A stretch of DNA of 64,000 nt. Origin: Candidatus Omnitrophota bacterium. Its GTDB lineage: Bacteria; Omnitrophota; Gorgyraeia; Zapsychrales; Aceulaceae. Below are positions 8,576 to 39,373 of this stretch, one piece after another; positions within the stretch are counted from its first letter, which is position 1; the number at the start of each line of letters is the position of its first letter. Under the pieces are notes generated by a model, which had not been told where the DNA came from, did not search any database, and saw only the letters and a list, made by a program, of their open reading frames with translations. A program made the translations under genes and the position numbers. The stretch covers positions 210,977 to 274,976 of the forward strand of contig JAKQPK010000050.1 of the NCBI GenBank assembly GCA_029564765.1, read 5' to 3'.

Positions 8576-11500
8576 CTATCCAGATGCTCTCACGACCTGC
8601 GCGCTATCTATCTGTGGCGTTTCAAATCCTAAGATCAAGGGAAGGTTATGCGCTGGGACCATCTGGATAATGATTGGCGCAAGGCTGTCAAAATGGATCC
8701 TTTCCATATCCTGGAATTGAACTGCCAAAGGAAGGCCCTGATCATCAGTTTTGATGTTCAGGTCTTGGTACAGGGTCGCGAAATCAATACCACCAGTAGG
8801 CGATAGATTATCCGCTCTTTTTTTCTGGAATTGCTTTTCTGCCTCAGCATAAGCCTCAGCATAACCATTCGCGAAAAGGGTCTGAGCTGTTTCATAAAGA
8901 TCAGCTAACGTTACCGAAAAGCCAAAAACAGACTCGATGATCTGCGTGGCATCTTCACCTTTGTACTGCCGTGCCATCACAGCATCTAAAACTACTCGCT
9001 GCCTTCCATCTTCACCCGCTTTAAAACCAGCACTATACAACCCTAAGCGGCTTCCCGCAAAACTAGATGAACCCATCAAAGCCACTAAGCTTTCAACAAT
9101 TTGCTCTTTCACAGTAGAGGAAGCGACTCCGCCTTGATCAGGTATCAAATTTCCAGCAACAGGAACAATTTTTCCTGTTAAAGGATGAACATAGAAAACA
9201 AGCTCAGTATCTTTATTCTGTGGAGGCAGACCTCTTGCCTGATGAGCAAGATCGCCAATATAACTTTCCAAAGAAGTGTCAACATAAAAAGGAATACCTG
9301 CCTTTTTCGCGGCTGTAGCCAAGATCATGACAGGACGTATCAGTTGATATTTTTGATCTTTTTCAGTGATATCATTGCCATTAATATTATTTCTCTCAAG
9401 CGCCATCAAATCGGAGGTAAATCGCAACGGATTCAAAAGAGATATCTCAGAAATATTGGCTTGCGCGTTTAGGATTTCATTAATCTCATAAAGATTAGCA
9501 GCAACTTCAACATCCACAGAAAGAGGAATATTAAGCCCGATCTCGCTCATAAGGCTTTTTACCTGATCGATCTCTTTAAAACTTCTCACAACCCTTAGCT
9601 GCAACACAATGCCTTTCTGGCCATTTACATCATCGACCAAGCGCTTGATAGCAGAAAGTTGTGCCCTTAAAAAATCTCGATCATTGCTTAAAGATTTAAC
9701 AAGGCCATGGACCCCATATTCCGGGTTGGCTTCACTTGGTTCATATAGCTCACCAAAAAGCAATTCTCGATATTCATTCGAGAAAAGAGCGTCCGTTGTA
9801 ATGATAAGCCGCTTTCCTTCCGTCTTTGCCTGAGAGAAAGATTTTCCAAGCGCCTCCAGAAGTCCACGCTCGTAAAACTTCATTCCGATCCCAGGTTCAT
9901 CAAGGCGCTCAACATATCCTTGATCACGCATAGAACGACGGATCTCCGTATACACTTTCCTCTCCTCGGCAGATAATGGCTGGTTTTTGAGAACCCTGGG
10001 AAGAAGGATTTCATCGTAGGACTTCAAGGCCTTATAATGAAATCCTAAAGTTAGACCAAAATCCGTCCCTATCTTGAATTGAGAATCCTCAAAAAGCTTC
10101 ACATCCGCAACGGCCTGTGGATCGATCTCAAAATCAAATCCGATCGCTTGCTGGGCTTCCGCAGGGATCTCAACGTCCTGACGGGCAAGGTTTTCCACGC
10201 CAAGCTTGATCGATTCTGGCGTCATGGAAACAGCTTCGTAACCTTCTTGCGCAAGAATCACTCCATAATTTTCCTGCCCCTTAACAGATGGCGCATTACC
10301 GCAAAAAGCATTCTTAATTTTGTTAACCGAATTGCGGAAGATCGCGTTAAATTTTTTCGTGATCTTTGGCATGCGACCATTCCAGCGCAAAATAGAAAGA
10401 CTATAATCCGTAACTACTTCTTTTAAGGACGCATTGCTCGTATTTCGATCCACTCTGGCCAATGTTTGCAAACCGTCATTGCCGCCAGTCGAGGTAAAAA
10501 AGTCAACGCTCCCAGCCTTTTTCCCTGAGCGCTGCTCAAAGATCGTGACTGCCGCCAAAAAATCCTCAATGTTAATCGAATTGGTAGGAAGCTCTGTCAT
10601 GATACCTACCTTAATATTGTCATCGATCAAGCCTTCTTCATCAAGGATCTCCAAAAATTTGACAACATCTATGGGCCTTCTGACAACAGGCGCGAAAATC
10701 CCAAACTTTGCTTTTTTTGTGTCAATGGCCTTTTTGATCGCTTCAAGCTGCCAGCGCAACGTCTGAGGATTCTTGAACATTAGATCCAACCCTCGAAAAC
10801 CTTTCATGGGATTTGCTTCACGATTAATGTACTCTTCCGCGCCATAAACATTCTGATATTCATCGCTTTTGCGGTCATCGAGTCGAATATAGTGACGTTT
10901 ATCCAAAAGCTTAACGATATCTGAAACGATCTGGGCGTCAGATCCATCCCTTATGCCACCTTCGGCGGCTTGTGCCAACTCGCTGAAAATGCTCTCAAGC
11001 TCTCGCAATGGAAAAATTTCACCGATGCCCTGCCGATAATAATTTTTAACAATATCTAACACCTTAACGCGAAGCTCGGCGTCCACAATGGTCTGAGCAT
11101 GTATCAAAACCCGCTTTAAAGGTGGGACTGTTGTAATGGATTTTGTCAATATAGATTCTGAAAGGACAGAAATATAAAAATCTTCAGCAGAATTATACCC
11201 TTCGATCGCCTTCTCAAGAAAGGAGATCTTTTCAGAATCACTAACGCGATCGAGGACCGGACCTTCATGCGGTTGCCGTTTTTCTTTCTTGACCATATTA
11301 TCATACGCCAGAAGAAGATCAGGATAGATGCCGATATCGTTTGTCAGCGTCAGCTCTTGACGATCAAGTCCTATGCCGTAAAAATCGATCATTAAGCGCA
11401 GAGGTGCTACTTTCAGGGCAGATGGCGGTGTGGCCGCGAAAACACCCACTCTTGCTTTGGTGCGCGGAAGGTCGATCGGACGAAAATCCTTGCCTTCAAC

Positions 11501-14500
11501 CTGCAAAACATAATCAGTGCCTAATAATATTTTTCCGCGGTTGGCGTCAATGGTCACCTTTACTCCATTAGGCAAAGCGTCCTGCAACTCTTCAAATGTC
11601 GCGTTAGAAACACCAGTGATCGCGACCAACCCATATTCTGAGGCAACGATCATCGTGTGCGAATTAGGCCCACCCTTAAGAGCCAAAATGCCCTTTGCCG
11701 CGATCATCGCCGAATTCATGTCAGGATCGCTTTGTTCAGCGAACATGATCTTTCCGATCGTCTGTGCCAGCGTGTCCGGTCTCTTGTCTAAGACCCAAAA
11801 GACCTGGCCTTGCGCGACCCCGCCTGTCTTGGCGATAAAATTAAAAGGCAAAACCTTTCCCTGGGCTTGTGCTTGCTGGAACGATTTATCCGTAACAAGG
11901 ATCTGTTTCATGAAGATCTTATGCGGATCACGGCGCGACCAAACCGTTTCGGGTCTGGCTTGAGTGCTGACGATCATCCAATCATATCGCGGAAAACCGC
12001 GCTCATCTAAAAGGGCTTTACCATTCTCATCCTTTAGCGTGATCATGTTCCCCTGAGCATCCCTTTTGATACGCAAAGCCCCCTCGAGATCAACGTAACC
12101 ACCGTAAAATTCATGCAAAGACCTAAAATAATCTGCGATCTTCCTTATAACCTCTTTGTCCGTGATCGAAAATTCTTGCTTGACGTCATCAGGGATCTCG
12201 ACTTCGATCTTACCCAACCCATCAGGTGTTTCAACGATCATGTGTGATCGTAAACCTCTTTTTCTGTTGAGTGGCTCGCCATCATACATCATGAAGAACT
12301 GACTTCCGGTCTCGCGTCCAGAAACGAGCATCTCTCCTTGCCCTTCTGTAGCCGATAGCGTCATTACAGGGAAACCTGTTTCGCGATCGACCGAAAAACC
12401 AATAAAACTTATCCCAGATAAAAACATTTCCTGGAATAACGTGCTGATCTCCACATGCTCATCAAAAGTAGGTAAACCAAAATCAAAACGATAATCAACA
12501 GCGCGCTTATTGAACAATGACGCTTGATTGAAGATCCAATTAGTAATGATAAAATCAAGCCCTTCAGGATCCTTTTTGGTTGCAAATGGCGTCACAAAGA
12601 TATATGTGTCCTGACGGCCAGCGAACGACGCGGCCTCGCTGTCTTCACCGACAGCTGAAGAACGGATCGCCAAAACAAGCTTATGAAGCGGGATACCGAT
12701 CCTCTGGGCAAGCTTTCGAAGATTACTTTTCATCTCTTCTTCGACAGCTCGGGGAACGATCATGGCTCGCCCGCCAATCAACAACTTACCAGAGATCATT
12801 GCTGTGATCTTTTCGTATTCAAGCTGTTTTCCCTGCAGCTGCTCCTCAAGCTGGGAGATCTTTTTGTTGATATCTACCTGATCTTCTTGCCCTTTTTTCT
12901 GGATCTCCAGCTCGGCGATCTCTTGAGCCAACTCTGTTTTCTTTTCCTTGATCAGCCGAACTTCTCGATCAAGATGATCACCCTGGGCTTTAAAATAATC
13001 TCTCAAGTTTTCATATGATCCGCTCTGTAGATCATCCAAAATAGACCTCATGACCGACAAAGTATCCTGGATCTGAGAAAAAACGCCCTCTCCTTTTTTT
13101 GTTTCAACAGCGACCCGCAAAAGAGAAAGATCTTTTGTGAGCTGATCGACCTCTTCTTCTGAAAGGCTTTGGCCAAGCGCAAGCTTCGGATGATCATCGC
13201 GATAGCGTATGATCTGCTTGATCAAGCGATCAAGGTGGGCCACGTACGCCTTCGTTGAATTACTGACAAAAAGATTTTGAAATGTTTCCCCGGCAGAAGC
13301 AAAATTAGGAAGCGTCACGATATCAGGGATGAACCCCATTTCTCCTGTATGTGCTGTCTTGCCTCCAAAGCCAACCTCATCCTGACGCTCAGCTTCGATA
13401 TCCCACACCGTAATACGGTCCTTAAAAGCGGGATCCTTGGTATATTCTTTGTGCAAGCTATAAACAAGGTTCTTCTGATCGCTTGCTTTCTGAGCTTCAT
13501 CTGCTCCAACGATCAGTTTTGTATTCGGATCAAGCTTCGCCTTGATATTCGCGATGGGATCCTCGATAGACTCCTCAGAAACCCTAACAATATTAGAGTG
13601 CTGCCGGTAAAACCTATCCAGAAGTTCTTGGGCCTTTTGTTCAGAGATCTTGCCGTATATCAAAAACTCATCGGTGAGCTTTTCCACAAGAACACGCTTA
13701 TCAAGTATCTTTCCTCGATGCAGCATATCCGAAACAAAAAGAATAATATCTGAATCGTTCAAGAAGTAAGGATCAAAAGCGCCTTCAAGCGTATCATTAC
13801 GAATGACCTTGTTCTTGATCTGATACATTGCCTTCACATCGTCCAATCGCGAGCCTTGCGGGATCAAAAGACTTTTCTTGTTGGCTCCGATAAGGATCTC
13901 CAGGTCCTTGATGCTGATATCACGCAAAACATCTTGCTGCATGATCTGAGCAAGCAAGCCAGCGATAAAGGACATCGTGATCTTCTTGCTTCCGGTCTGA
14001 AAAAGATAGTCTAAAAACTGGGTATTGATCGTGACCTTATTATTGGCAACATCAACATCCGCATACTCACCTTTTGTTTGTCCAACAAAGAATTGGACTT
14101 GGTCCATATAGCTGGCTAACAAACGCAATATTTTGTATTCTTGTTTTTCTCCGCCATAAAAAGAAAAAAAGTTCTTGGTCAAAGGGTACAGTTTGTCGTA
14201 TTTGCCAAAAAACATTTGTCCAGGCTCAAGATCACGATGGCCTGGAAATTTTTCTTTTTTGGAAAGAGCGATCGCTGAGGACATAGGAGCCGACACAAAG
14301 CCCTCATCCTTCGGAAGCTGGATGAAATCAACCGCCAGATCAGCATCATCAACGATACTCAGCTTCCAACTGACATCATGTATGCCCTTGGAAGTGCTGA
14401 CAAGCAAACCGTCGTAAGAGATCTTTACTTCTGAAATGTATTTTTTCAGGTTCTGATCAAGTCTTTGATAAGGATGCCATCCGTAATCTGTCCCTGGAGC

Positions 14501-16129
14501 ATGGCCAAGCATGGCCAAAACTTCTTTAGGTTTTTGCCCGATGGCCTGATGGATAAGGTCAAGATTGCTCTCCAAAGATCTTTTTGCGTCTAAATACGGG
14601 ATCTTAATCGCTGAGCTCAGCGATGATGATGTGCGTGTTTTTCGCTGGTAAACATAGACGATCCAACGGTCTGTGGGATTCTTTAAAGCCTTGTAGTACC
14701 CTCGAGGGGCGATCGCAACATAGCGTTGATCACCTGCGATCATGATGACAGGACTTTTAGGTGCGTCACCGGTATCAACATCAACACTCTTGTGAGCATA
14801 CTTTTCAACAAGGTAATTCTTAACTTGCTCTTGATTCCATATGTTGGCACCGTCCTCAAGAATGAAATGCCAACTCTTGCGCTCCCACTGCCCAGAAGAC
14901 CTCTCAAGAGGCGAGCTATTGCTTTTTTTATCTGTAGATAGGGCTGCCGTAATGCGCGTATTATCCCCACCGCGGACAATATTGTTCTGCTGCTGCGGGC
15001 TTGTGGATGTGATCTCCTCAAGATTCTCTGCGATCTTCGTCAAGACATCAATGCCGCCGGAGAAATATTTTCTTGGAATATGTCTTTTGGTGTGATCATC
15101 ATATTCCGCGCGAATAAAATTGTAGACGCCCTGTTTATAGGCTAAAAGATAGGACTCGTAGATCTTTTGTTTGATCTCTTTATCCTCAAGATCAATACCG
15201 GCGACCTTGGATCGATCGACGTAGATCTTTCCTAAAAGACTCTCTTTCAAGTTCTTCTTAAACCACATGCCTAAGACAAGAGCGTTGTAGGCTTGACGCA
15301 AAGACGCAAAATTCTTTCCCGTATTGACCTCTTTTTCAAGCTCTGGGATAACGATGTCGCGGATAATGGAAGAAGCGATTGAGCTTGTTGAGCTTGTTGC
15401 GTTTGTTGGGTTGGACGAACTCAAAGAACCCGATGAACTCAATAAACTCGATGAACCGTTCGAACGCGACAGCGCGAGGTAATCTTCTTCCAACATGACC
15501 TTTAACGATGCCTCAGCAACAAATGCCATATTGCCATGACGATAAACAACAACTTTATCCGGCATGATCCATACCTTATTAAAAGTGTCTACCGGGATCT
15601 CAGTGGTCTGGTATATTGCGTAAGCCTTTTGGTAAACCTTGTCCCAGAATTTCTTTCCAAGATCGGTCTGCGGGTGGATCAAGGAGGCGGTCAGTTGTTT
15701 TAAAATGTAATCTTGCGCTAGCAAGTCTCGCCCCAGATCGGTCTGCGCTAAGGCATCAGGAATGATGCGGTCCTGTTCGAAGGGAGAAAGGTTGACCCAC
15801 AGATCTTTCTCGGGGATCGTTAGCGATGCCAAGAAATACTTGATCAGCTTCTCTGATTCCTGCTTTAACGCATCACCTGCAAGATCCTCATCGCCATCAT
15901 TGATGATAAAATCGAACTTAAAAGGATTGTCGGGATAAACTTCGAGGCCTACCATCATCGCAGGATAAAATACCGGCGTTGTCGAAAGAATGGCGCCGGG
16001 CTGCGGCAATCCTAAAGCTTGGGCAAATCCAGGTGAAGGGACAATAAGATTGATCAAAAAACAGATCGAAACAAAACAACGAACAACTCGAGAGGATGCC
16101 GTTGTGGCATTCTTTTTGAAGGTGAGCAT
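8576..16129 (-). CDS. Giant secreted multidomain protein (2517 aa): signal peptide, shared N-module, PEP-synthase/PPDK-type phosphotransferase core, shared C-module
   Basis: Signal peptide MLTFKKNATTASSRVVRCFVSICFLINLIVPSPGFAQA. The N-module (about aa 40-400) is about 50% identical to that of the 33540-39197 protein. Coiled coil ELAQEIAELEIQKKGQEDQ... PPDK_N/PEPS ATP-grasp signature AIRSSAVGEDSEAASFAGRQDTY. Swivel phospho-His signature GGPNSHTMIVASEYGLVAITGV. PEP-utilizer TIM-barrel-like VDFFTSTGGNDGLQT. Ser-rich linkers. The C-terminal ~60 aa are shared with the paralog. Confidence 0.85.
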   Translation of the reverse strand: MLTFKKNATTASSRVVRCFVSICFLINLIVPSPGFAQALGLPQPGAILSTTPVFYPAMMVGLEVYPDNPFKFDFIINDGDEDLAGDALKQESEKLIKYFLASLTIPEKDLWVNLSPFEQDRIIPDALAQTDLGRDLLAQDYILKQLTASLIHPQTDLGKKFWDKVYQKAYAIYQTTEIPVDTFNKVWIMPDKVVVYRHGNMAFVAEASLKVMLEEDYLALSRSNGSSSLLSSSGSLSSSNPTNATSSTSSIASSIIRDIVIPELEKEVNTGKNFASLRQAYNALVLGMWFKKNLKESLLGKIYVDRSKVAGIDLEDKEIKQKIYESYLLAYKQGVYNFIRAEYDDHTKRHIPRKYFSGGIDVLTKIAENLEEITSTSPQQQNNIVRGGDNTRITAALSTDKKSNSSPLERSSGQWERKSWHFILEDGANIWNQEQVKNYLVEKYAHKSVDVDTGDAPKSPVIMIAGDQRYVAIAPRGYYKALKNPTDRWIVYVYQRKTRTSSSLSSAIKIPYLDAKRSLESNLDLIHQAIGQKPKEVLAMLGHAPGTDYGWHPYQRLDQNLKKYISEVKISYDGLLVSTSKGIHDVSWKLSIVDDADLAVDFIQLPKDEGFVSAPMSSAIALSKKEKFPGHRDLEPGQMFFGKYDKLYPLTKNFFSFYGGEKQEYKILRLLASYMDQVQFFVGQTKGEYADVDVANNKVTINTQFLDYLFQTGSKKITMSFIAGLLAQIMQQDVLRDISIKDLEILIGANKKSLLIPQGSRLDDVKAMYQIKNKVIRNDTLEGAFDPYFLNDSDIILFVSDMLHRGKILDKRVLVEKLTDEFLIYGKISEQKAQELLDRFYRQHSNIVRVSEESIEDPIANIKAKLDPNTKLIVGADEAQKASDQKNLVYSLHKEYTKDPAFKDRITVWDIEAERQDEVGFGGKTAHTGEMGFIPDIVTLPNFASAGETFQNLFVSNSTKAYVAHLDRLIKQIIRYRDDHPKLALGQSLSEEEVDQLTKDLSLLRVAVETKKGEGVFSQIQDTLSVMRSILDDLQSGSYENLRDYFKAQGDHLDREVRLIKEKKTELAQEIAELEIQKKGQEDQVDINKKISQLEEQLQGKQLEYEKITAMISGKLLIGGRAMIVPRAVEEEMKSNLRKLAQRIGIPLHKLVLAIRSSAVGEDSEAASFAGRQDTYIFVTPFATKKDPEGLDFIITNWIFNQASLFNKRAVDYRFDFGLPTFDEHVEISTLFQEMFLSGISFIGFSVDRETGFPVMTLSATEGQGEMLVSGRETGSQFFMMYDGEPLNRKRGLRSHMIVETPDGLGKIEVEIPDDVKQEFSITDKEVIRKIADYFRSLHEFYGGYVDLEGALRIKRDAQGNMITLKDENGKALLDERGFPRYDWMIVSTQARPETVWSRRDPHKIFMKQILVTDKSFQQAQAQGKVLPFNFIAKTGGVAQGQVFWVLDKRPDTLAQTIGKIMFAEQSDPDMNSAMIAAKGILALKGGPNSHTMIVASEYGLVAITGVSNATFEELQDALPNGVKVTIDANRGKILLGTDYVLQVEGKDFRPIDLPRTKARVGVFAATPPSALKVAPLRLMIDFYGIGLDRQELTLTNDIGIYPDLLLAYDNMVKKEKRQPHEGPVLDRVSDSEKISFLEKAIEGYNSAEDFYISVLSESILTKSITTVPPLKRVLIHAQTIVDAELRVKVLDIVKNYYRQGIGEIFPLRELESIFSELAQAAEGGIRDGSDAQIVSDIVKLLDKRHYIRLDDRKSDEYQNVYGAEEYINREANPMKGFRGLDLMFKNPQTLRWQLEAIKKAIDTKKAKFGIFAPVVRRPIDVVKFLEILDEEGLIDDNIKVGIMTELPTNSINIEDFLAAVTIFEQRSGKKAGSVDFFTSTGGNDGLQTLARVDRNTSNASLKEVVTDYSLSILRWNGRMPKITKKFNAIFRNSVNKIKNAFCGNAPSVKGQENYGVILAQEGYEAVSMTPESIKLGVENLARQDVEIPAEAQQAIGFDFEIDPQAVADVKLFEDSQFKIGTDFGLTLGFHYKALKSYDEILLPRVLKNQPLSAEERKVYTEIRRSMRDQGYVERLDEPGIGMKFYERGLLEALGKSFSQAKTEGKRLIITTDALFSNEYRELLFGELYEPSEANPEYGVHGLVKSLSNDRDFLRAQLSAIKRLVDDVNGQKGIVLQLRVVRSFKEIDQVKSLMSEIGLNIPLSVDVEVAANLYEINEILNAQANISEISLLNPLRFTSDLMALERNNINGNDITEKDQKYQLIRPVMILATAAKKAGIPFYVDTSLESYIGDLAHQARGLPPQNKDTELVFYVHPLTGKIVPVAGNLIPDQGGVASSTVKEQIVESLVALMGSSSFAGSRLGLYSAGFKAGEDGRQRVVLDAVMARQYKGEDATQIIESVFGFSVTLADLYETAQTLFANGYAEAYAEAEKQFQKKRADNLSPTGGIDFATLYQDLNIKTDDQGLPLAVQFQDMERIHFDSLAPIIIQMVPAHNLPLILGFETPQIDSAQVVRASG

Positions 16130-31281: not shown

Positions 31282-31757
31282 TATTTTTCTTTCACAGGAT
31301 CCACGTGAGGCGGCGCAAGATCAACGACGTTCTCAACATTGACCTTGATTAAATATTTTGGATGTAAAGGAAGATGGGCTTCGTGGTGTTTTCTGGATTT
31401 AAACCCTGCCTGAACACTGCGTGCGATACGCTTAGAAATACGATGAACGACCCTTTTCTCCCACTCTTCAAAGATCTTTTCATGCAACTGGTCGCGGGTG
31501 ATGATCTCGGCTTGCCCTTGAAGCGTGTACCCTTTGAACAAATGATCGTCAAATGCCGTAATGCTGATCATGGGGTTGCGCTTAAGATTGCGAAATGTCC
31601 GATAAAGATAGAGGTCGATCAAGAAAAGATTATCTGGGCTCTCAGCGCTGATGATCCCCTTGATCGAACAATGGATACACCCTTTTTCATCCAGGGTTGA
31701 GACGATAACACTGTCTTGGCTTTCAAAGAAATTGATAATTTCTTTATCGATCCGCAT
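31281..31757 (-). CDS. Pyridoxamine-5'-phosphate-oxidase-like split-barrel flavin-binding protein
   Basis: 158 aa. Weak similarity pattern only (N-terminal VIVSTLDEKG...ISIT). Start overlaps the PerR stop. Confidence 0.4.
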   Translation of the reverse strand: MRIDKEIINFFESQDSVIVSTLDEKGCIHCSIKGIISAESPDNLFLIDLYLYRTFRNLKRNPMISITAFDDHLFKGYTLQGQAEIITRDQLHEKIFEEWEKRVVHRISKRIARSVQAGFKSRKHHEAHLPLHPKYLIKVNVENVVDLAPPHVDPVKEK

Positions 31758-31761
31758 GTCT

Positions 31762-32961
31762 CTATTGTCCGATCAATGTCTTGGCAGTAGTTACTGCGTA
31801 AGCGAGGCCCTCTAGATCACTTGCGCTTGGAATAAACTGAACATATTTTCCTTGGCCGACAAGCTCAAAGCCAGCATCCTGAATAGATGTTTCCAATTCT
31901 TTAAAACCAACCATCGACCACCCATAAGAACCAAAAGTCATCGCATATTTATTTCTGCATTTCAGGCCTTTTAAGTACATCAACAGCCCAGCCATTGTTG
32001 GAAGCATGCGATTATTCAAGATCGGCGTTCCAAAAATAACAAGCTTTGATGTTAAAATATCTGTCACGATATCCGACATATGCCCCGCTTGCAGGCTGAC
32101 AAGCTTAACAAAGATCCCTTCTCTATCAAAAATTTCTTGAAGCTTCTCTGCCATTTGCTTGGTCGAATTCCACATCGTGTCATAAACGATCAACACTTTT
32201 TTATCCGCCTGGTAATTAGCCCATTTCTCGTACAAATGGACGATCTTAGCGATATCTTCTTTCCGCCTCCAGATCAATCCGTGCGAAGGGCAGATCATGT
32301 CGATCACCATCGGCTTGAGCGCTTCTAAAGCCTTGAGCACTTGGTTTCCATATGGCATCACGATATTAGCGTAATACTTGGCCGCATCCTCAAAAATGAC
32401 ATCCGCGCCAGCCTCATCCGCATAACGCTCGACCGATGCGCGATGCTGGCCAAAGGCGTCATTAGGAAAAAGGATCTTGTCCTGCGGCGAATACGTTGCC
32501 ATAGAATCCGGCCAATGGACCATCGGCATAAGGAAGAATTTCAACGTTCGCTTACCAATGTTGAGCTCATCACCGGTGTTGACAACTTTAAAATTCCAGT
32601 CTTTTTCGCTTCGCGTACCACTAGGCAGGAAATGTTTCCTTAGCCCCTCGCATCCTTTGGGCGAGCAAACAACTTGCGCTTGAGGGCAAAACTTCAGCAA
32701 GCTGTCGATGGACCCAGAATGGTCCATTTCGGTATGATTAGAAATGATGTATTGAATCTTATCAGGGTCGATCACTTCCTTGATGCGAGAGATCATCTCA
32801 TCAAAGCCGTAATACTTGACCGTATCGATCAACGTCGGCTTTTCATCAAGGATCAAATAAGAGTTGTATGTAGAGCCTGAGGGCGTGTCATAGCCGTGAA
32901 AATTACGCAGGTCCCAATCAATGTATCCGGTCCAATAAATATCAGGAGAGATAGAGTGCAT
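31762..32961 (-). CDS. Flavodiiron protein (rubredoxin:oxygen/NO oxidoreductase, FprA/Roo type)
   Basis: Metallo-beta-lactamase di-iron motif NHTEMDHSGS plus a C-terminal flavodoxin domain (KVLIVYDTMWNSTKQMAE); 399 aa. Confidence 0.85.
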   Translation of the reverse strand: MHSISPDIYWTGYIDWDLRNFHGYDTPSGSTYNSYLILDEKPTLIDTVKYYGFDEMISRIKEVIDPDKIQYIISNHTEMDHSGSIDSLLKFCPQAQVVCSPKGCEGLRKHFLPSGTRSEKDWNFKVVNTGDELNIGKRTLKFFLMPMVHWPDSMATYSPQDKILFPNDAFGQHRASVERYADEAGADVIFEDAAKYYANIVMPYGNQVLKALEALKPMVIDMICPSHGLIWRRKEDIAKIVHLYEKWANYQADKKVLIVYDTMWNSTKQMAEKLQEIFDREGIFVKLVSLQAGHMSDIVTDILTSKLVIFGTPILNNRMLPTMAGLLMYLKGLKCRNKYAMTFGSYGWSMVGFKELETSIQDAGFELVGQGKYVQFIPSASDLEGLAYAVTTAKTLIGQ

Positions 32962-32988
32962 AATTAAATGAAAGGGTTAAAGAGTTAA

Positions 32989-33160
32989 GAGTATTTAGTC
33001 GATAGTATTTAGTAAAAACAAAAATAAAGAATCTGAAACGAAAAAGATTTATTCTACTCTTCTAAAGATTTTCTCAATTCGCAATTCTTTTATGCTTGTC
33101 GTTTTACGCTTTATTTCTTAACTTTTTTCACTATATACTAAATACTATCGGCTAAATACT
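32989..33160. repeat. 24-bp inverted repeat (1 mismatch) flanking a 123-bp AT-rich spacer between the rubredoxin and flavodiiron genes
   Basis: Left arm AGTATTTAGTCGATAGTATTTAGT (32990-33013). Right arm ACTAAATACTATCGGCTAAATACT (33137-33160), the reverse complement with one mismatch. Each arm carries AGTATTTAG twice with a 14-bp period. Confidence 0.6.
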
Positions 33161-33163
33161 TTT

Positions 33164-33328
33164 TTATCCTTCTACTGCCTCAAAATCCGCCTTTGACACC
33201 CCGCACTCTGGGCACACCCAAGAATCAGGAATAGCTTCAAATGCTGTGCCGGGTGCAATATTGCCGTCTGGATCCCCTTTTTCCGGGTCATAGATGTAGC
33301 CGCAAACAGTGCATTTATATTTTTTCAT
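33164..33328 (-). CDS. Rubredoxin
   Basis: [22 protein letters not shown]...WVCPECG, two CxxCG knuckles. ATG at 33328 has AAAGGAGG 7 nt upstream; the ORF track starts 8 codons earlier. Confidence 0.9.
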
Positions 33329-33539
33329 AAACAGCCTCCTTTGCGTGAGCACACAACTTACGCGACTGAAAGGAGCGTCAAGTTGTCCGTGCGAATTTAT
33401 CCCGGTGAAGCTGCGACCTAGCAGCTGAATCGGGAAACATTAAATAGATTTTAATATTACCACAGAACGTTATACAAATATCAATATTTTCTAATCAGGA
33501 ATAGTTATTATATAGGAATATCCTTAGATGTCAAGAAAG

Positions 33540-36500
33540 TTATCGAGCAAGGCTCAGCCGTGGTTGGCTTTCTTGGCGAACACCGAGCAAAAGCGGAAGA
33601 TTTGTAACCGGCGCGATATTGATAATAACAGGATAGAGCCCATCAATCTCAATATTCTCAAAATTCTCAAGGTCAAATTGTATAGGGCTTGCGCCTCCCT
33701 GACGTTCAAGGTCGAAATGAGCAGGATTAAGATCGATACCGCCGACTTCGTTTGGCTTCACTTGAGCTTGTTCGTATCCAGTCCTAACATCCTTAAGAGA
33801 ATCAATAAGATCAGAATAAGAATCATACCCTAAAGCCCAAGCCAAAGCCTGTTTCTTGCTGCTTGAGAATTCCTCATTTTTAAATTCTAAGTAATTCTGG
33901 ATCACATCCCAAACAGCTTTCTTAGACTCAATGGTTAAGTACCGAAGTTGGACATCTTGTGTGATCGTCGCTTCACCTGCTGATCGATCGATCACGATTC
34001 CGCTGTCTTCGAATGTCTTTTTTGCAAAAATCAAATTAATACCACCAAAACCATTCAAAAGACGAACACGCGTCATCTGCCCCTCTCCGCCGGGATTCAC
34101 GAATATTCTTTGTGCCTGAGAACCGATCATTTTCCCGTCGCTCTCAAAAATCATCTTATACAAATTCTCTAAAGTGGTTACTGTGCCGTAAGCCTCTTTT
34201 ATGGCTGAATAATTTTTTGCAAGCCAGCCTTCAACATCAAAAAATGATCGACCATGTTCTTGTGCGATAGCCTGCAACGCAACATCTACTTCAATTCCTG
34301 GTCTAAGACGATCCATTCGTTCAACACTCGATGTAATTCTCAGCTTATCAGCCGCATCATTAACTGGTATAAAATCACGATATTTTTCAAGCCATTCCTT
34401 TGTTTTTTGGATAAAAGCCAAGGCTTCCCTTGCACCCATACCAGAAATAAGCCCGTTTTGAATCTTTTGAGAAATCGCATCCCACTGCTCCTTTATTTCG
34501 CCTTGAGATACAGCTGACGATACCGGACTCCCGTCAGGATTAAAAAGCTCTAGCTGTTCGCCTGCCTTCCTGAAGAATACTTTTTCTCCAGCCGCGAGCT
34601 TATTTAAAAGCGGCTGTGAGACCGTATAAACGCCATCGCCAGCAAGCTGCATCTTTACTTTGATGCTCTGCTGAAGGGCACGATACGCCCCTTGAACGAT
34701 ATCGTTGGTCAGTGTATTCTCGGGAAACACCCACATCTCAAGACTACTCGAAAAGAAATCCGCAGTCGTGATAACAAATTTTCCATCAGAGGCCTTGCGC
34801 GCTTGATATTTAAGACCCAAGGTTCTTGTAATATTTTCGTTGATCCCCTGAGCTGCTTTAAAATGCTCCATAATATTGCCGTTGGGCTCTTGATAGCGCT
34901 CGCTAAAGAAGACAACGATGTTGCTATTGTTTGTTGTGTCAACAACAGCCTTGAATTTCCAGATGCCGTCCTTGTCCAGTGTGGCTATCTTTTCGATCGT
35001 CTTGTCATTTAGCTCTAACGCCCTTCCATTTTCAAGCAAGACATCCTCTGTGAGATCGCGCGTTGAACGAGAAATGCGATCATTGAAATAAAGCGCATGC
35101 AGCGTTGGTATAAACTGCTTCTTTTCCTGAATAACCTTTTGGACTTCCTGATATATCCTAGCCTTATTCTTTTCAGGATATTGACGATCAAGCGCTAAGA
35201 TAATATTTTCCGCTGTTGGACGGGAAACCCTGATGCGTCCACCTTCTGTGATGATAAAATTTCGGAAAGCTGGAACATTCTCATAATATTCTTCAATCGT
35301 AAAGATGCCCTTCCAGAAAAAATCTTCTGGCAAATCCAGCTTGCTCCTGCTCTTAAACTGCAAAAGCTGTGTGTCAATAACATAAGCCCCATCGATCTCA
35401 ATAATTTCATGAGTAATGCCTAACTCTTCTTCGCGAATCCTGTCTGCATTGGGTGGAATGTATATCGTTTTTGGCTCAAAACCATAGTTGAGGCGCAAAT
35501 GGCTGCTGTTTTCCCAGATGCCCATGATCTCGTTGGTGGCTAAGGCGCACTGATTAGAATGCTTCGGATCGTACTTCTTGATGATCGACTCCGCCAAATT
35601 CTTTAATTCGGCTGGGATGCTCGAGGAAGAAGCCGAAACATACAGATCTCCGACACCATAATCAACAACCCCACCATCAATAGAAATGCCTAAAATATCT
35701 CGTTGGCTGACTTTCTTAAAACCGCTCAATCCTTCAAAATACGCCTGATCGACCTTGGCTGGAGCATAATAAATCTTGCCATCTGATCTCATCTTTTTTC
35801 TTAGATTTCCACTATTGTGCCATTTCTCAAAAAAGTTCGCCACCTGCGGCGAAGGGTTGATCACGGACAAATAGTCGATCGCGCCATCAGGAATATGGTA
35901 AAGAAGATCGGCAAACTCCCCTTTAAGGATCACAAGATTCTCTTTTTCTTCTTTAAGACCATCTAATTTTTTTTGGTCCCATAGTTCTCGGTAATAATAC
36001 CCCGACTCTGCAAATGAATCAAAACCAATAACACCTATATCCCTATTTTGACCAGCCACAGCCAAAGGAAATCGTCCTTGGCCTGTTCCAGCATCTACAT
36101 AGATCTGGCCATGCTTCTGCAGGATCGAAACAGCCTTTGCGACCGCCTCCTGAGAATTCCCTTGCCTGACAAGATATTGTTCAAAATTCCTGATTTCTGA
36201 TGAAATAGCTGAAGAGACATCGCTATCAGCGTAACGTTTCTTTCCATCCTGGGACAGGACGACCATTCTCGTTCCATCTGCAGGTCGGATAGGAAGTAGA
36301 GAGTCGAAAGTCGCGTTGATCAGCATGTAATCTTCTTCGGGATAAAACGCTTTAATATTTTTCATAAAAAGATTAAATTTGTTTTGCCGCTCTTCTTGTG
36401 TCATGCGGCTATAAGCAACCCACTCGAGGATGTTGGAGACATGGACCACAGAAGCTTGTCCTGAAATTTGCGCTTTTTGTAAGAATTCTCTTATCATTTC

Positions 36501-39197
36501 TTCGCTTGACTCGCCAAACCAATCGAGTGTTAAGAAATGGATCTTGCCTGTTTGGACCATATTTTTTATTTTTAAGAAATTTTCCTCGCTTCCCAACCAG
36601 CTAAAAATATCTTGGGATTCTTCTATGGCTTTTCTAACGACAACCGACCAATTCAACATTCCACTTTTATTTTGAAAGACCCCATCCCAAAAGTTCTTCG
36701 CGCGCTCATTGCTCTCGAGGTCCGGTCTTACCTCGATCATTTTCTGCCAGATCTCGTTTTTACGCGCATAGCTGTTTGCGACGCCCGAAAGACCCAAGGA
36801 AACATCTTCTTGTGGCAAATATCCCTGTAAGAGATTTAAATACTCTTGTCGATTTCCTGAAATAGAAATGAGAGCGGCTTTGATGGGCAAAAATGCCTCT
36901 GTTACAAAAGGATTAAAATCAACCAAAACACCATCACTAAAATCACCGTTGGCAATCCAAGAAAAATCCTGCCCCGTGCCAACATAAGCACCCTGAGCAC
37001 TTTTAACTTCTTGATATGTCGGACCCCACCCCTCATTCGAACTTGACCATTGCAAAGCTGAACGCATGTCAAGTAAAGCCTGATCTTCAGCTCCCGAACG
37101 TTGTCCGCTTGGAGAAATTGATAGGCTTGGTATATTCCTAACGGAAACCATCTTCTCGTCTGTTGGAACGTAACTGACAGACTTAAAGGTATAACTTCTT
37201 CGCCCATTATCAATTGGCAAGGTGATCGATCTTTCGCTACCCGGTTTCATGTTCAAGGTGATCTCTTGATTGCCGCGACGCACTGCAGAAACGAATAAGA
37301 GACGCTCTCCAGTTTCAGCACCATTAACGATAAGATTCTTTACTCTCAGATTAATATCGATCCCTGCTTTCCGCATCTGTTCAAGGATCACAATATAATC
37401 TGTCTCATTGCGCAACCCCTGTGCGTCATTAAAAAACAAGAGCTGGCTGACAAAGGTTCCTCCATCGTTTAGCTGATGAAAAAGATTGAGCCACGCGGCA
37501 AGCGGATCAGAAAGATACTGCAAAACAAAAAAAGAAGTGATCAGGTCCATCTTGACGGGCTTTCCGTCTTTGTCATATATTCTTTTTGTCGTTATGTCGT
37601 TTTCAGGGCCTTTAAAAAAATTAACCTTGGGGGCCATCAATTCATACATCTCTTTGCCATCTGGCCCATATTCATTCAAGAACCCTTCGAGCGCTTGAGG
37701 ACCCATATCCTTAATTTGAGATTCTTTTTTGTCGATCCCATAAGCATCGATCAAGCTGCCATACGAATACTTAATATTGATCAACGACATCCCCAGCCCG
37801 CATCCGGCATCTAGGATCTTCGCCGGGACTTTTGTTCTGCTAGCCTTTGCGGCTAGGTTCTCAACGATCTTTCCTAAGGGATTTTCTCCTTGAACATTCT
37901 GGATCTCCACCCCAAAAAGATTAAGAATACCATCGTAGCGATAATAATCACGGTAATTAGTGTGGTTGCTCTCATCGGACAATTGGGAAGTTTTTTGTAA
38001 TGGCGATGCGGAGGAGCTCTGAAGCCCACTTGTGACAACTCGCAAAGATGATGAGCCGAGACTGCCAAGGCCATCTGTTTTTTCAATGATGCCGCTACCG
38101 TCAAAATGCGTTTTCATTTCAATGCCGCCGGAAAAATATTTTCTCGGGATCGCCTTGCGAATATAAGGGTCGAATTCAACCTTCATGATATCGCAAACAC
38201 CTTTTTTATAGGCAGCCAGATACTGTGCGTAGATCTTCTGGTGAACATCCTTGTCGTCAACATCAACACCCTTGACCTTGCTTTGATCACTGTACTTTTT
38301 ATTGATGATCGAATCCTTGAGCGCCTGCTTAAACCACGCCGCCAGAATAAAAGAGCTGTAAACTTGGCGCAACACAGCAAAATTCTTACCCTCATTGACC
38401 TCTTTCTCAAGCTCCGGCAACAACACTTCCCGAGCGATCTGAGAAGAAAGGGAGTTTTTAGCCGTTAGTATTTGGTCGTTAGTATTTTGTAAAGGCTTTG
38501 CACTAGATAGGCTATCGACTTGTTGCTTTGCCTGTAAAGCAACATAATCCTCCTCCAGCATGACCTTCAGCTTCGATTCGATAATAAAAGCTTTATCATG
38601 ATTCTCGTAGACCTTCGCCTTGGCAGGAACGATCCATACCTTATTGAACGTATTCGCCGGAATATTAGTCGTCCCAAAAAGCTCGTAGGATCTTTTATAA
38701 ACCTTATCCCAAAATACCTTTCCTGTCTTGCTCTCAGGATGCGTTAATGATGCCGTTATCTGCTTTAAAAGATAGTCCTGAGCTAAAAGGTCTCGCCCCA
38801 TTTCAGTTTCGCCAAAATCACCAGCAATAATGCGTTCTTTTTCGTAAGGGCTGAGATTAACCCATAAATTCTTCTCAGGAACGGTCAAAGACGCCAAAAA
38901 ATACCGAACAAGCTTCTGGGCCTCAATATTAAAGGCCTCGCCTTCCAGGCCCGAATCTCCCACATCCACGATAAAATCGAATTGAAAAGGGTTGTCGGGA
39001 TAGGCCCTGATCCCGCGAAGCATCGCAGGCATAAAGCTGTTGCTTAACAAAACAGGTGTTCCAGGCGCTGGCAAGCCTAAAAGCCCTTGGGCTAAGGCCT
39101 GAGGAGGAAAGACCGTTGTTAGCAAGAACACGCCTGCGACAAGCCAAGACAGGCTCTTTAATATACGCTTTTTTATTCGGCTATTTATCGTTTTCAT
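33540..39197 (-). CDS. Giant secreted multidomain protein (1885 aa): signal peptide, shared N-module, two class I SAM-methyltransferase domains, shared C-module
   Basis: Signal peptide MKTINSRIKKRILKSLSWLVAGVFLLTTVFPPQALA. N-module paralogous to the 8576-16129 protein (LTVPEKNLWVNLSPYEKERII, GRDLLAQDYLLKQITASLTHP, IPRKYFSGGIE). MTase motif I twice (KILDAGCGLGMSL, IYVDAGTGQGRF). C-terminal GGIDL...PVIINIAPVTNLPLLLGV matches the paralog's GGIDF...PIIIQMVPAHNLPLILGF. Confidence 0.85.
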   Translation of the reverse strand: MKTINSRIKKRILKSLSWLVAGVFLLTTVFPPQALAQGLLGLPAPGTPVLLSNSFMPAMLRGIRAYPDNPFQFDFIVDVGDSGLEGEAFNIEAQKLVRYFLASLTVPEKNLWVNLSPYEKERIIAGDFGETEMGRDLLAQDYLLKQITASLTHPESKTGKVFWDKVYKRSYELFGTTNIPANTFNKVWIVPAKAKVYENHDKAFIIESKLKVMLEEDYVALQAKQQVDSLSSAKPLQNTNDQILTAKNSLSSQIAREVLLPELEKEVNEGKNFAVLRQVYSSFILAAWFKQALKDSIINKKYSDQSKVKGVDVDDKDVHQKIYAQYLAAYKKGVCDIMKVEFDPYIRKAIPRKYFSGGIEMKTHFDGSGIIEKTDGLGSLGSSSLRVVTSGLQSSSASPLQKTSQLSDESNHTNYRDYYRYDGILNLFGVEIQNVQGENPLGKIVENLAAKASRTKVPAKILDAGCGLGMSLINIKYSYGSLIDAYGIDKKESQIKDMGPQALEGFLNEYGPDGKEMYELMAPKVNFFKGPENDITTKRIYDKDGKPVKMDLITSFFVLQYLSDPLAAWLNLFHQLNDGGTFVSQLLFFNDAQGLRNETDYIVILEQMRKAGIDINLRVKNLIVNGAETGERLLFVSAVRRGNQEITLNMKPGSERSITLPIDNGRRSYTFKSVSYVPTDEKMVSVRNIPSLSISPSGQRSGAEDQALLDMRSALQWSSSNEGWGPTYQEVKSAQGAYVGTGQDFSWIANGDFSDGVLVDFNPFVTEAFLPIKAALISISGNRQEYLNLLQGYLPQEDVSLGLSGVANSYARKNEIWQKMIEVRPDLESNERAKNFWDGVFQNKSGMLNWSVVVRKAIEESQDIFSWLGSEENFLKIKNMVQTGKIHFLTLDWFGESSEEMIREFLQKAQISGQASVVHVSNILEWVAYSRMTQEERQNKFNLFMKNIKAFYPEEDYMLINATFDSLLPIRPADGTRMVVLSQDGKKRYADSDVSSAISSEIRNFEQYLVRQGNSQEAVAKAVSILQKHGQIYVDAGTGQGRFPLAVAGQNRDIGVIGFDSFAESGYYYRELWDQKKLDGLKEEKENLVILKGEFADLLYHIPDGAIDYLSVINPSPQVANFFEKWHNSGNLRKKMRSDGKIYYAPAKVDQAYFEGLSGFKKVSQRDILGISIDGGVVDYGVGDLYVSASSSSIPAELKNLAESIIKKYDPKHSNQCALATNEIMGIWENSSHLRLNYGFEPKTIYIPPNADRIREEELGITHEIIEIDGAYVIDTQLLQFKSRSKLDLPEDFFWKGIFTIEEYYENVPAFRNFIITEGGRIRVSRPTAENIILALDRQYPEKNKARIYQEVQKVIQEKKQFIPTLHALYFNDRISRSTRDLTEDVLLENGRALELNDKTIEKIATLDKDGIWKFKAVVDTTNNSNIVVFFSERYQEPNGNIMEHFKAAQGINENITRTLGLKYQARKASDGKFVITTADFFSSSLEMWVFPENTLTNDIVQGAYRALQQSIKVKMQLAGDGVYTVSQPLLNKLAAGEKVFFRKAGEQLELFNPDGSPVSSAVSQGEIKEQWDAISQKIQNGLISGMGAREALAFIQKTKEWLEKYRDFIPVNDAADKLRITSSVERMDRLRPGIEVDVALQAIAQEHGRSFFDVEGWLAKNYSAIKEAYGTVTTLENLYKMIFESDGKMIGSQAQRIFVNPGGEGQMTRVRLLNGFGGINLIFAKKTFEDSGIVIDRSAGEATITQDVQLRYLTIESKKAVWDVIQNYLEFKNEEFSSSKKQALAWALGYDSYSDLIDSLKDVRTGYEQAQVKPNEVGGIDLNPAHFDLERQGGASPIQFDLENFENIEIDGLYPVIINIAPVTNLPLLLGVRQESQPRLSLAR

Positions 39198-39300
39198 AAA
39201 ATACGCGCTCTATCCCCTGTCCATCCAAGACATAATAAGTATAATATATAATTTTATTGATAAAAGAGGATGTCTGTCGTTTTGGGAAAGCGCTACCTTA

Positions 39301-39340
39301 GATAGTAAAAGGGCGGCTTGAGAACATTCTCAAGCCGCCC
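39301..39340 (-). terminator. Intrinsic terminator of pspC-like gene
   Basis: GGGCGGCUUGAGA-acau-UCUCAAGCCGCCC 13-bp stem (39311-39340), then UUUUACUAUC on the minus strand. Confidence 0.75.
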
Positions 39341-39373
39341 CAATCCATTACAAATACTTAGTCTATATATTTT

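Follow-up and report, generated by a model that had tools for sequence, protein, structure and literature searches.

Omnitrophota are uncultured, ultra-small and probably host-dependent bacteria whose giant proteins are still puzzling. MARTX proteins of Vibrio and its relatives have conserved ends that flank variable effector domains needing cofactors of the host cytosol. Their cassettes recombine between strains, and an internal cysteine protease of the caspase-like type (C80) frees the effectors. These proteins leave the cell by type I secretion, lack a Sec signal and carry long arms of glycine-rich repeats. Cargo proteins of the T9SS of Bacteroidota combine a Sec signal with variable domains and a small conserved C-terminal domain (CTD), present on dozens of paralogs per genome and served by one machinery; to our knowledge, they have no conserved N-terminal module and their enzymes are of extracytoplasmic type. 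In polymorphic toxins (CdiA, Rhs, LXG), a constant trafficking part is followed by a variable extreme C-terminus and then by an immunity gene. Finally, the SAM-dependent effectors NleE/OspZ, which travel by the T3SS and other routes, are active only after delivery into another cell.

Within the phylum itself, molecule transfer into prey, with open cytoplasmic contact, has been described for the predator Ca. Velamenicoccus archaeovorus (PMC13153191). Passages of two preprints on Omnitrophota giant proteins (10.64898/2026.06.07.730766, 10.1101/2023.11.21.568195) report the same Pfam repertoire as that met below, mostly together with signal peptides or TM helices. The corresponding passages propose, for the Archaeovorins (West-Roberts et al. 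2023 preprint) and in the long-protein catalogue of the 2026 preprint, that such proteins take part in contact with host or prey.

The window analysed here is a stretch of 64,000 nucleotides from an Omnitrophota genome. One of its open reading frames encodes a protein of 1885 residues (Table 1) that belongs to a very large, apparently so far undescribed Omnitrophota family, called here the cap family after its conserved terminal modules, the N-cap and the C-cap. This reading frame is a genuine gene: every module is under purifying selection and a syntenic ortholog (L081) exists, in which the start MKTINSRIKKRILK is kept. Against this ortholog, dN/dS is 0.14 over aa 1-1555 and ranges from 0.08 to 0.20 over the modules, a purifying selection equal in strength to that on neighbouring genes. 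Elevated dN/dS was sought in the modules and none was found, which leaves them without an arms-race signal.

Table 1. Features of the 1885-residue protein gene, its flanks and its paralog (positions in the window).
Feature	Residues	Position	Strand	Basis or remark
Whole ORF	1-1885	33540..39197	(-)	Uninterrupted, ATG start
Sec-type signal peptide	1-36	39090..39197	(-)	Predicted cleavage between ALA and QG
N-cap (conserved N-terminal module)	37-360	38118..39089	(-)	Family conservation; ends PRKYFSGG
Class I SAM methyltransferase domain 1	434-694	37116..37898	(-)	Pfam, AF2, Foldseek
DUF7790 module	727-960	36318..37019	(-)	PF25046, E 9.1e-12, above cut-off
Class I methyltransferase domain 2 (TrmB/NpmA-like)	994-1190	35628..36218	(-)	Profile against PDB, AF2
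Candidate papain/transglutaminase-like Cys-His-Asp module (C1217, H1263, D1275)	1194-1310	35268..35618	(-)	Residue conservation, AF2
Cargo module without family match	1311-1558	34524..35267	(-)	Common to P0001 and P0005
Last cargo module, swapped cassette	1559-1817	33747..34523	(-)	Ortholog comparison
C-cap (conserved C-terminal module)	1818-1873	33579..33746	(-)	Family alignment; GGIDLNP...IDGLYPVIINIAPVTNLPLLLG
Short tail ending ..RLSLAR, with stop codon		33540..33578	(-)	Resembles tails of many members
Promoter TTGACA-16-TATAAT (perfect) for the rubredoxin gene 33164-33328		33507..33534	(-)	Directly after the ORF stop
Terminator and promoter-like site		39251..39341	(-)	Upstream of the ORF
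Paralog, 2517 aa, same N-cap and C-cap, PEP-synthase-type cargo		8576..16129	(-)	Pfam/NCBIfam

The first-pass annotation had set this gene apart by its missing Shine-Dalgarno (SD) sequence and terminator. Indeed, no SD-like 4-mer is present at -16 to -7 of ATG 39197 and no terminator-like site lies 3' of the stop. However, the claim that these traits are unusual is not supported. An SD-like 4-mer is likewise missing at these positions in 16 of the 34 ORFs of the window, and its absence therefore does not single out this gene; a terminator is absent because the perfect promoter of the next gene directly follows the stop. On the upstream side, a weak promoter-like site (39280-39251, minus strand) lies between the strong intrinsic terminator of the PspC gene (39341-39310, minus strand) and the ORF. 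Rfam and tRNA scans of the whole window returned nothing.

The two caps define the family. The N-cap, about 325 residues long, is 47% identical to that of the paralog and 50-63% identical to those of family members. It was found in 8352 cluster representatives (clusters at 50% identity) and occurs once, at the N-terminus, in each of the top 150 of these matches. Repetition of the N-cap inside longer proteins was ruled out, as all top 150 show a single match or one near-full-length best stretch. Its AF2 model has a pLDDT of 72.8. Foldseek gave no fold match in PDB or BFVD, and no family match was obtained in Pfam, in NCBIfam or with a profile against PDB; therefore, the role proposed below for the N-cap is a guess. 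The C-cap, about 55 residues long, follows the pattern GGIDLNP...PVIINIxPVTNLPLLLG in the family. It lacks the traits of the C-terminal sorting signals described so far, having neither a TM helix with basic cluster nor a match to the T9SS CTD (TIGR04183/TIGR04131 type, NCBIfam and Pfam), and neither the C-cap nor the frame as a whole is matched in Pfam, NCBIfam or PDB. When homologs were sought with the C-cap profile, only short fragments lying at the ends of contigs came back. Among loci picked by the C-cap motif alone, all five ORFs longer than 1000 aa with a visible 5' end carry the N-cap, and both caps stand at the termini, around unrelated middles, in 108 of 120 homologs. After an acidic spacer, many members close with a ..LS(x)L or ..LSLAR tail. 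We found no paper describing either cap, and the passages of the 2023 and 2026 giant-protein preprints on N-terminal and C-terminal parts do not mention them.

At least 582 loci of the family, which was seen only in Omnitrophota, were confirmed. In the best 80 of these, the genome labels, where given, are Omnitrophota or 'uncultured Planctomycetales', the latter taken as automatic, and up to five loci occur per genome. Members measure from 0.7 to at least 5.3 kaa, and their cargo includes PGK, PGI, PEP synthase, kinases, GNAT and CoA enzymes, a cargo that is metabolic and not obviously toxic. In the 3-kb flanks of these 80 loci, no conserved neighbour gene was seen except further family members, and a search for partner machinery found none. 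Immunity-like genes were not seen at family loci, and orphan 3' fragments lie downstream of some of them (L099). The modules of the 1885-residue protein sit at different positions in other members. How the middles vary is visible in the syntenic ortholog: the DNA is 91% identical on both sides, and window positions 33744-34522 have no counterpart, showing that exactly one cargo cassette was replaced between the two genes.

The signal peptide holds the sole hydrophobic 19-mer of the protein. Across the family, the n-region has a net charge of about +3 and, in an alignment judged by eye, A36 (the -1 Ala) of the AxA↓Q site never varies and position -3 holds a small residue. A Tat signal was ruled out, as the sequence has no RR, and so was a prepilin-type signal, as it has no G↓F(T/S)LIE. 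The protein contains only three cysteines, that is 0.16%, close to the family median of 0.14%, as compared to 1.81% for other ORFs of the window. This depletion, about tenfold, is a compositional signature of export, being like that of the envelope proteins of the window; the remaining Cys-poor ORFs there are mostly of this kind (LolA-like, DUF1302-like, AsmA). Thus, the protein unites the family marks: signal peptide with N-cap, terminal C-cap and cysteine depletion. From the sequence, the signal peptide is probably cleaved and the protein located outside the cytoplasm.

An arrangement with an uncleaved N-terminal anchor, in which the N-cap and the cargo stay on the cytoplasmic face and the caps arrange the enzymes along the membrane of a tiny cell, would suit the cargo, made of cofactor-dependent, cytoplasm-type enzymes to which SAM and ATP would be available there. 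It would also agree with 10.64898/2026.06.07.730766, passages of which read many long Omnitrophota proteins as anchored in the inner membrane with cytoplasmic domains. We nevertheless consider this arrangement unlikely. By the positive-inside rule, the N-terminus lies in the cytoplasm and the remainder of the chain beyond the membrane, and no second hydrophobic segment, hence no later TM helix, follows the signal peptide to return the chain. In addition, the family retains the signal-peptidase site, and its cysteine depletion fits envelope and not cytoplasmic proteins of the same genome.

The first-pass annotation had called a SAM enzyme behind a Sec signal unexpected. The oddity is borne out, with a predicted Sec signal and methyltransferase folds on one chain, but it is no peculiarity of this protein: it is the general rule in a large family with swappable cargo. 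The remark had been extended to the paralog, which has PEP-synthase domains and no detectable methyltransferase domain.

The first of the two methyltransferase domains is strongly supported as a class I SAM methyltransferase fold of generic Methyltransf_23/25 type. Its motif I match KILDAGCGLGMSL lies at aa 460-472. The Pfam models Methyltransf_23 (aa 445-586, E 1.5e-9, 38.2 bits for a cut-off of 27) and Methyltransf_31 (31.7 bits, cut-off 27) pass, and Methyltransf_12 stays narrowly under its cut-off (27.7 bits, cut-off 30). The AF2 model (pLDDT about 90) shows an alternating beta/alpha core with an extra C-terminal sheet, in keeping with the Rossmann-like seven-stranded fold of the class. 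Foldseek against PDB gave 723 matches at E<=1e-3, the top 50 having the class I methyltransferase fold and being nearly all SAM methyltransferases; MitM matched this domain with E 3.9e-8. D463, G465, G467 and G469 of motif I (LDAGCGLG) are invariant in 8 sequences. The post-I acidic residue and motif IV, proposed earlier as a check, are both present and equally invariant, as D489 (YGID, end of beta2) and D551 (MDLI, beta4). These SAM-contact residues are kept in homologs 29-58% identical (29-88% over all seven), and dN/dS of the domain is 0.14.

The second domain is moderately supported as a class I SAM methyltransferase fold, TrmB/NpmA-like. TrmB is the tRNA m7G46 and NpmA/KamB the 16S m1A1408 methyltransferase. 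A six-sequence profile matched the 16S rRNA methylase 7jlz (E 1.2e-6) and TrmB 1yzh (E 4.6e-6) in PDB, and every match at E<=0.001 was a methyltransferase. Family models remained under their cut-offs: NpmA (E 4.7e-7, 29.8 bits, cut-off 60), Methyltransf_4 (E 0.006, 16.4 bits, cut-off 24) and TIGR00091 (12.6, cut-off 112). The domain contains VDAGTGQG (GTGQG at 1037-1041), the acidic beta2 residue GFD1060 and INPSPQ at 1113-1118, with NPSP as compared to DPWP in TrmB. In the AF2 model, beta1-beta5 have a pLDDT of 80-94 and aa 1150-1190, where beta6/beta7 are expected, fall below 50. Its dN/dS is 0.17. The motif I match IYVDAGTGQGRF (aa 1032-1043) is 572 aa from KILDAGCGLGMSL, in agreement with the spacing of about 600 aa noted at first, and in the AF2 model each motif lies on a beta1 strand flanked by helices (pLDDT 83-96), confirming the Rossmann-like context. 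Therefore, two class I folds are retained from the first-pass annotation. They are not in tandem, with a DUF7790 module of about 300 aa between them, and the protein has at least six cargo modules in all.

Both domains have features of class I SAM methyltransferases: motif I, an acidic residue following beta2, motif IV and an alternating beta/alpha fold. Unlike known enzymes of this class, they are embedded in a predicted exported multidomain protein. SAM is not expected outside the cytoplasm, and GxGxG is degenerate in homologs of domain 2 (ACGDAN, GCDNGA). Both facts would suit a protein resident in the periplasm or at the surface whose methyltransferase-like modules are pseudoenzymes for binding or scaffolding. 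Yet the invariance of the domain 1 residues across distant homologs and a purifying selection like that on neighbouring genes argue against this reading, which we regard as very unlikely; in the explanation preferred below, the modules are presumed to be catalytically active.

The other cargo is less readily classified. The DUF7790 module has low AF2 confidence; NCBIfam gave a weak match to the LIC_10091 lipoprotein family, and a profile against PDB retrieved only the uncharacterised chain 6ulo (E 0.4). A literature search returned no paper mentioning DUF7790 or 6ULO. A homolog search with aa 400-1250 yielded a single, identical fragment (P0121). For the module at aa 1311-1558, which occurs twice in P0005, dN/dS is 0.08. 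The last cargo module is 56% identical to aa 1435-1672 of P0004. In the module that follows domain 2, C1217 (one of the three cysteines), H1263 and D1275 are invariant in 7 homologs. The AF2 model (pLDDT 80-93) places the Cys at a helix start, the His on a strand and the Asp directly after the next strand. No match was found in Pfam or among PDB sequences, and the sole Foldseek run, on the multidomain model, was saturated by methyltransferases. We therefore infer the fold class from residue order and predicted secondary structure, and the module is a candidate peptidase-like domain.

Two linker motifs are found repeatedly between modules, SSP[VI], enriched 34-fold, and D.AML, and module borders as well as the cassette breakpoint fall in Ser-rich stretches. 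Taken with a conserved module that retains a scarce cysteine, these linkers could mark an exported polyprotein precursor, cut in the Ser-rich stretches, perhaps by its own Cys-His-Asp module, to release the enzymes. However, this module is present in only some members, its assignment as a peptidase has no family or PDB match behind it, and Ser/Pro-rich linkers are common in uncleaved extracellular multidomain proteins. Such processing, which would be compatible with the explanation preferred below and refine it, is in our view rather unlikely.

On balance, the protein is probably an exported cargo protein handled by shared machinery, and it may be delivered to a host or prey cell. A frame made of a predicted cleavable signal peptide, the N-cap and the C-cap with its short tail encloses a row of cargo modules that fold independently and are connected by Ser-rich linkers: here the SAM methyltransferase, DUF7790, the TrmB/NpmA-like domain, the candidate Cys-His-Asp domain and the two modules without family match. 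The pre-protein would pass the inner membrane unfolded via Sec and lose its signal at ALA↓QG. The two invariant caps would then be read by one postulated shared envelope machinery, which would anchor the protein at the surface or hand it over, possibly to the inside of a host or prey cell attached to the bacterium; nowhere else would such cargo find SAM, ATP and CoA. Diversity arises by swapping whole cassettes at the linkers.

More speculatively, N-cap/C-cap proteins may be the substrates of a protein-delivery route across Omnitrophota, undescribed in the sources checked, that leads to a host or prey cell or to an energised extracytoplasmic compartment, with the caps as address labels and cassette exchange generating the repertoire. 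We put this forward as a tentative possibility. If it were true, thousands of Sec-exported proteins would take SAM-, ATP- and CoA-dependent enzymes out of tiny cells. With the caps as a handle, one can catalogue the enzymes that any given Omnitrophota genome exports and look for the machinery that reads the caps, and one can test whether metabolic enzymes really reside extracellularly or within a partner cell. Family genes annotated as 'phosphoglycerate kinase' or 'class I SAM-dependent methyltransferase' probably do not encode ordinary housekeeping enzymes of the cytoplasm, which affects metabolic reconstructions of the phylum.

Among the known systems, MARTX proteins resemble the cap family in their conserved ends, variable middle and cassette exchange, and the candidate cysteine module of some members adds to the likeness. 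The 1885-residue protein has no Pfam or NCBIfam match to the MARTX repeats or to C80, and it has a Sec signal. The likeness to T9SS cargo lies in the Sec signal, the variable domains and the small conserved C-terminal module. With polymorphic toxins, the family has in common constant and variable parts, cassette replacement and orphan 3' fragments; unlike these toxins, it has a constant C-terminus and an internal, metabolic cargo, and no immunity gene was seen. NleE/OspZ differ in fold or family and in secretion route, and offer a precedent by analogy, with no homology shown.

The giant proteins belong to the same phylum and, in the passages describing them, carry the same one-chain cargo repertoire (methyltransferase, PPDK_N, GNAT, HATPase, PGM, starch synthase, NUDIX, HEAT). 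The 1885-residue protein agrees with the Archaeovorin type of cargo (methyltransferase, kinase, glycosyl and NUDIX on one Omnitrophota chain) but not with its size and topology (more than about 10-30 kaa, many TM helices), having a single hydrophobic segment. More generally, the giants described there reach 10-147 kaa with many TM helices, whereas the cap family has none after the signal. With 0.7-5 kaa, thousands of members, sharp constant ends and interchangeable enzyme cargo, the cap family is far more tractable than the giants.

The ORF at 33540-39197 (-) is uninterrupted, with an ATG start and 1885 codons. The first-pass annotation had seen in it two tandem class I SAM-methyltransferase folds, from two motif-I matches that we located at aa 460-472 and aa 1032-1043. 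Both folds are supported by database matches and structure models, the first strongly (with invariant SAM-contact positions as well) and the second moderately. In domain 1, the first methyltransferase, aa 445-586 passed Pfam's curated cut-offs for Methyltransf_23 (E 1.5e-9) and Methyltransf_31, with Methyltransf_12 slightly under cut-off. In the region of domain 2, the NpmA and Methyltransf_4/TrmB matches of Pfam were both sub-threshold, and phmmer directly matched TrmB 1yzh. Profiles of the two domains, each aligned with few homologs (A2 and A3), were searched against solved structures, a comparison that the annotation had proposed. The domain 1 profile gave 43 matches, nearly all class I methyltransferases (top E 1.4e-4), and the top matches of domain 2 were the 16S rRNA methylase 7jlz (E 1.2e-6) and TrmB (E 4.6e-6).

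AlphaFold2 modelling of aa 405-1600 gave domain 1 a core of alternating beta strands and helices, in which beta1 carries motif I, and an extra C-terminal sheet (pLDDT ~90). For domain 2, beta1 to beta5 were modelled at aa 994-1150 (pLDDT 80-94), and the region expected to hold the final strands (aa 1150-1190) fell below pLDDT 50. Using this model, Foldseek returned 723 PDB matches at E<=1e-3. The best 50 all have the class I methyltransferase fold, and almost all of them are SAM methyltransferases; MitM, RebM, JHAMT, BioC and the cyclase SpnF are among the 50. Domain 1 contacts SAM at D463, G465, G467, G469, D489 and D551 by alignment, and these positions were invariant down to 29%-identical sequences; D489 and D551 are the post-I acidic residue and the motif IV residue to which the annotation had pointed. 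It is quite improbable that the methyltransferase-like modules are non-catalytic binding modules. The tandem arrangement did not hold, a DUF7790 module (Pfam, E 9e-12) lying between the two folds. Neither methyltransferase domain is out of the ordinary; each is a member or a relative of a known family.

The 1885-aa protein and its paralog in the window share two stretches only, the first ~400 aa (47% identity) and ~55 aa at the extreme end; the middle of the paralog is a PEP-synthase-type enzyme. We call the conserved end modules N-cap and C-cap, the modules between them cargo, and Omnitrophota proteins with signal peptide and both caps the capped family. A whole-protein database search gave more than 3600 matches, a lower bound, almost all spanning ~19% of the query, and all named ones came from Omnitrophota MAGs. 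Local BLAST and inspection placed both caps at their ends in 108 of the 120 best matches, the others apparently being cut off by contig ends. In these 108, the motif GGIDLNP...(I/M)xIxG(F/L)xPVIINIxPVTNLPLLLG stands near the C-terminus; among the 120, an acidic spacer follows it, often then a ..LSxL tail. In an exhaustive HMMER search, 8352 cluster representatives (50% identity) matched the N-cap profile, and 6695 of these did so at E<=1e-30. Among the best 150, the N-cap occurs essentially once per protein, at residues ~5-365 (146 show a single stretch, and the remaining four have one best stretch of nearly full length). Protein lengths were 420-5312 aa among the N-cap matches listed; members of 3.7-5.3 kaa retain both caps, with CoA- and nucleotide-sugar enzymes as cargo in the two that were scanned. 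As a reverse test, loci were chosen by a back-translated C-cap pattern alone: all five ORFs >1000 aa with a visible 5' end begin with the N-cap.

Scanning one genome per species yielded at least 582 family loci, with a second member directly upstream at at least 7 of them. Among the best 80, up to five loci occur per genome, and the named MAGs are all labelled Omnitrophota or 'uncultured Planctomycetales', which we took to be automatic labels. The latter stands on many Omnitrophota MAGs with the capped family, and members are publicly named after one cargo domain (phosphoglycerate kinase, glucose-6-phosphate isomerase, class I SAM-dependent methyltransferase); such names and labels could mislead metabolic and taxonomic summaries. 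At another locus, L099 (Ga0247727_10023192, ~6500-8950), two extra partial C-cap copies lie downstream of a complete member, with small genes between; among these is a nucleotidyltransferase-type ORF, possibly with a HEPN-like partner (judged by eye alone). The arrangement looks like the result of insertions that duplicated the gene's 3' end. Neither cap matched Pfam or NCBIfam models or PDB sequences. A mixed alpha/beta model of the N-cap (pLDDT 72.8) gave no match among PDB and viral folds.

Features of the 1885-aa protein and of its surroundings in the window
Feature	Residues (aa)	Window position	Strand	Remarks
N-cap	37-360			with signal, 38118-39197
Domain 1	434-694			methyltransferase
DUF7790 module	727-960			
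Domain 2	994-1190			TrmB/NpmA-like methyltransferase
Small domain	1194-1310	35268-35618	-	after domain 2 and SSSS linker; pLDDT 80-93
Unassigned module	1311-1558			homologs only inside capped family
Last cargo module	1559-1817	33744-34522	-	homologs only inside capped family
C-cap	1818-1873			
Paralog		8576-16129	-	2517 aa; same N-cap and C-cap; PEP-synthase/PPDK-type cargo (PPDK_N, mobile domain, PEP-binding domain); 3 Cys in total, C1943 within PEP-binding domain
PilZ-domain protein		1258-2394	-	~6 kb downstream of paralog
Oxidative-stress cluster		28817-33328	-	anaerobe-type
Rubredoxin gene		33164-33328	-	54 aa; strong SD
Rubredoxin promoter		33534-33507		perfect sigma-70 consensus

A Sec signal peptide on a SAM enzyme had been judged unexpected, and the signal stood up. 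The only hydrophobic 19-mer of the protein is its N-terminus; family-wide, the mean net charge ahead of the hydrophobic region is ~+3, and the -1 Ala is invariant; the -3 residue is small in the sequences of alignment A1, as read by eye. The N-terminus thus looks like a cleavable Sec signal, with a predicted site here at ALA/QG, cut between A and Q. Median Cys content is 0.14% in the capped family versus 1.81% pooled for the other window ORFs, of which the Cys-poor ones are mostly envelope proteins (LolA-like 0.00%, DUF1302-like 0.23%, AsmA 0.50%). Cargo with cytoplasmic relatives has therefore come to resemble exported proteins in composition. That composition and the conservation of the signal-peptidase site argue that the predicted export is genuine and of long standing in the family, and against a false-positive signal or a tether holding the protein at the cytoplasmic membrane; we consider the tether unlikely.

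By the Pfam assignments that the database itself supplies, the cargo is unrelated among family matches. It includes PGK, PGI, phosphoglucomutase, starch synthase, PEP synthase, GNAT, Ser/Thr kinase, PP2C, HATPase, receiver, NUDIX, PRTase, acyl-CoA dehydrogenase, M48 and M3 peptidases and HEAT repeats. In the small domain that follows domain 2, the model places C1217 at a helix start, H1263 on a strand and D1275 right after the next strand; seven homologs keep all three unchanged, and C1217 is one of only three Cys in the protein. By inference from their order and spacing, the domain is a candidate papain- or transglutaminase-like cysteine peptidase core; searches of family models and PDB sequences gave no match to it. 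It could be a self-processing protease. At module borders, SSP[VI] is enriched 34 times over expectation (207 family proteins), and VSSP/SSSP and D.AML(S/T) recur; these motifs could be processing sites, glycosylation sites or simply linkers. A self-processing polyprotein is rather unlikely, and would be compatible with export.

A syntenic ortholog on Logan contig L081 is flanked as here, by DNA-alkylation-repair/PspC genes on one side and flavodiiron/PNPOx genes on the other. There, 671 unrelated bases (5874-6544) stand precisely in place of the last cargo module, with 91% identical DNA on both sides and breakpoints in a Ser-rich linker upstream and at the C-cap start downstream. The window's own last module shares 56% identity with one in the family protein P0004, and elsewhere in the family the modules of the 1885-aa protein stand at different positions. 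Purifying selection acts on every module of the protein (dN/dS 0.08-0.20), about as it does on neighbouring genes. Therefore, diversity arises from cassette exchange and not from rapid point substitution. Synonymous divergence from L081 is only 0.07 over signal and N-cap versus 0.35-0.48 over the cargo part, which suggests recent recombination or extra constraint.

The lack of an SD and of a downstream terminator had been taken to set the gene apart. Both absences stood: no SD-like 4-mer is present at -16..-7, and no terminator was found after the stop. The gene is not set apart by them, as 16 of 34 window ORFs likewise lack the 4-mer and the perfect promoter of the downstream rubredoxin gene (TTGACA-16-TATAAT) begins six bases past the stop. 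A strong terminator ends the PspC gene upstream. The ~180-nt rubredoxin leader gave no known RNA element in Rfam. The oxidative-stress cluster (rubredoxin, flavodiiron protein, PNPOx-like protein, NAD-binding reductase) is kept in L081, where rubrerythrin and ferritin are annotated among the orthologous genes. According to the giant-gene preprint, pilZ genes often follow giant genes; the connection of the window PilZ gene to this pattern is loose.

Short conserved end modules mark the substrates of one shared machinery in T9SS CTDs, TPS domains and MARTX arms. By analogy, the two caps, short and strongly conserved on thousands of proteins that differ in all else, would be such a signature, and we therefore propose an export route. 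Sec export and signal cleavage would be followed by cap-dependent anchoring or onward translocation, and the cargo would act at the surface or inside an attached host or prey cell. The latter destination would fit the cargo's need for SAM, ATP and CoA more consistently. The Omnitrophota predator Ca. Velamenicoccus archaeovorus is reported to transfer molecules into prey and to form an open cytoplasmic contact (PMC13153191). Weak points of the proposed route are that the cargo is not obviously toxic and that the evidence on localisation is computational throughout; no partner machinery was found in the 3-kb flanks of 80 loci.

The available passages of two preprints on Omnitrophota giant proteins (10.64898/2026.06.07.730766; 10.1101/2023.11.21.568195) and of Seymour et al. 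do not mention the caps, and further literature searches returned nothing on them. According to the preprints, the giants have the same domain repertoire, mostly with signal or TM. The capped family has a substantial chance of marking a new delivery route. MARTX toxins follow a similar logic, but the 1885-aa protein is without their repeats or T1SS; T9SS cargo does also, but no CTD match was found in this protein. The giants are similar in content, whereas the 1885-aa protein has neither their size nor their TM helices. We rate it as belonging with the modular exported multi-enzyme proteins of Omnitrophota.
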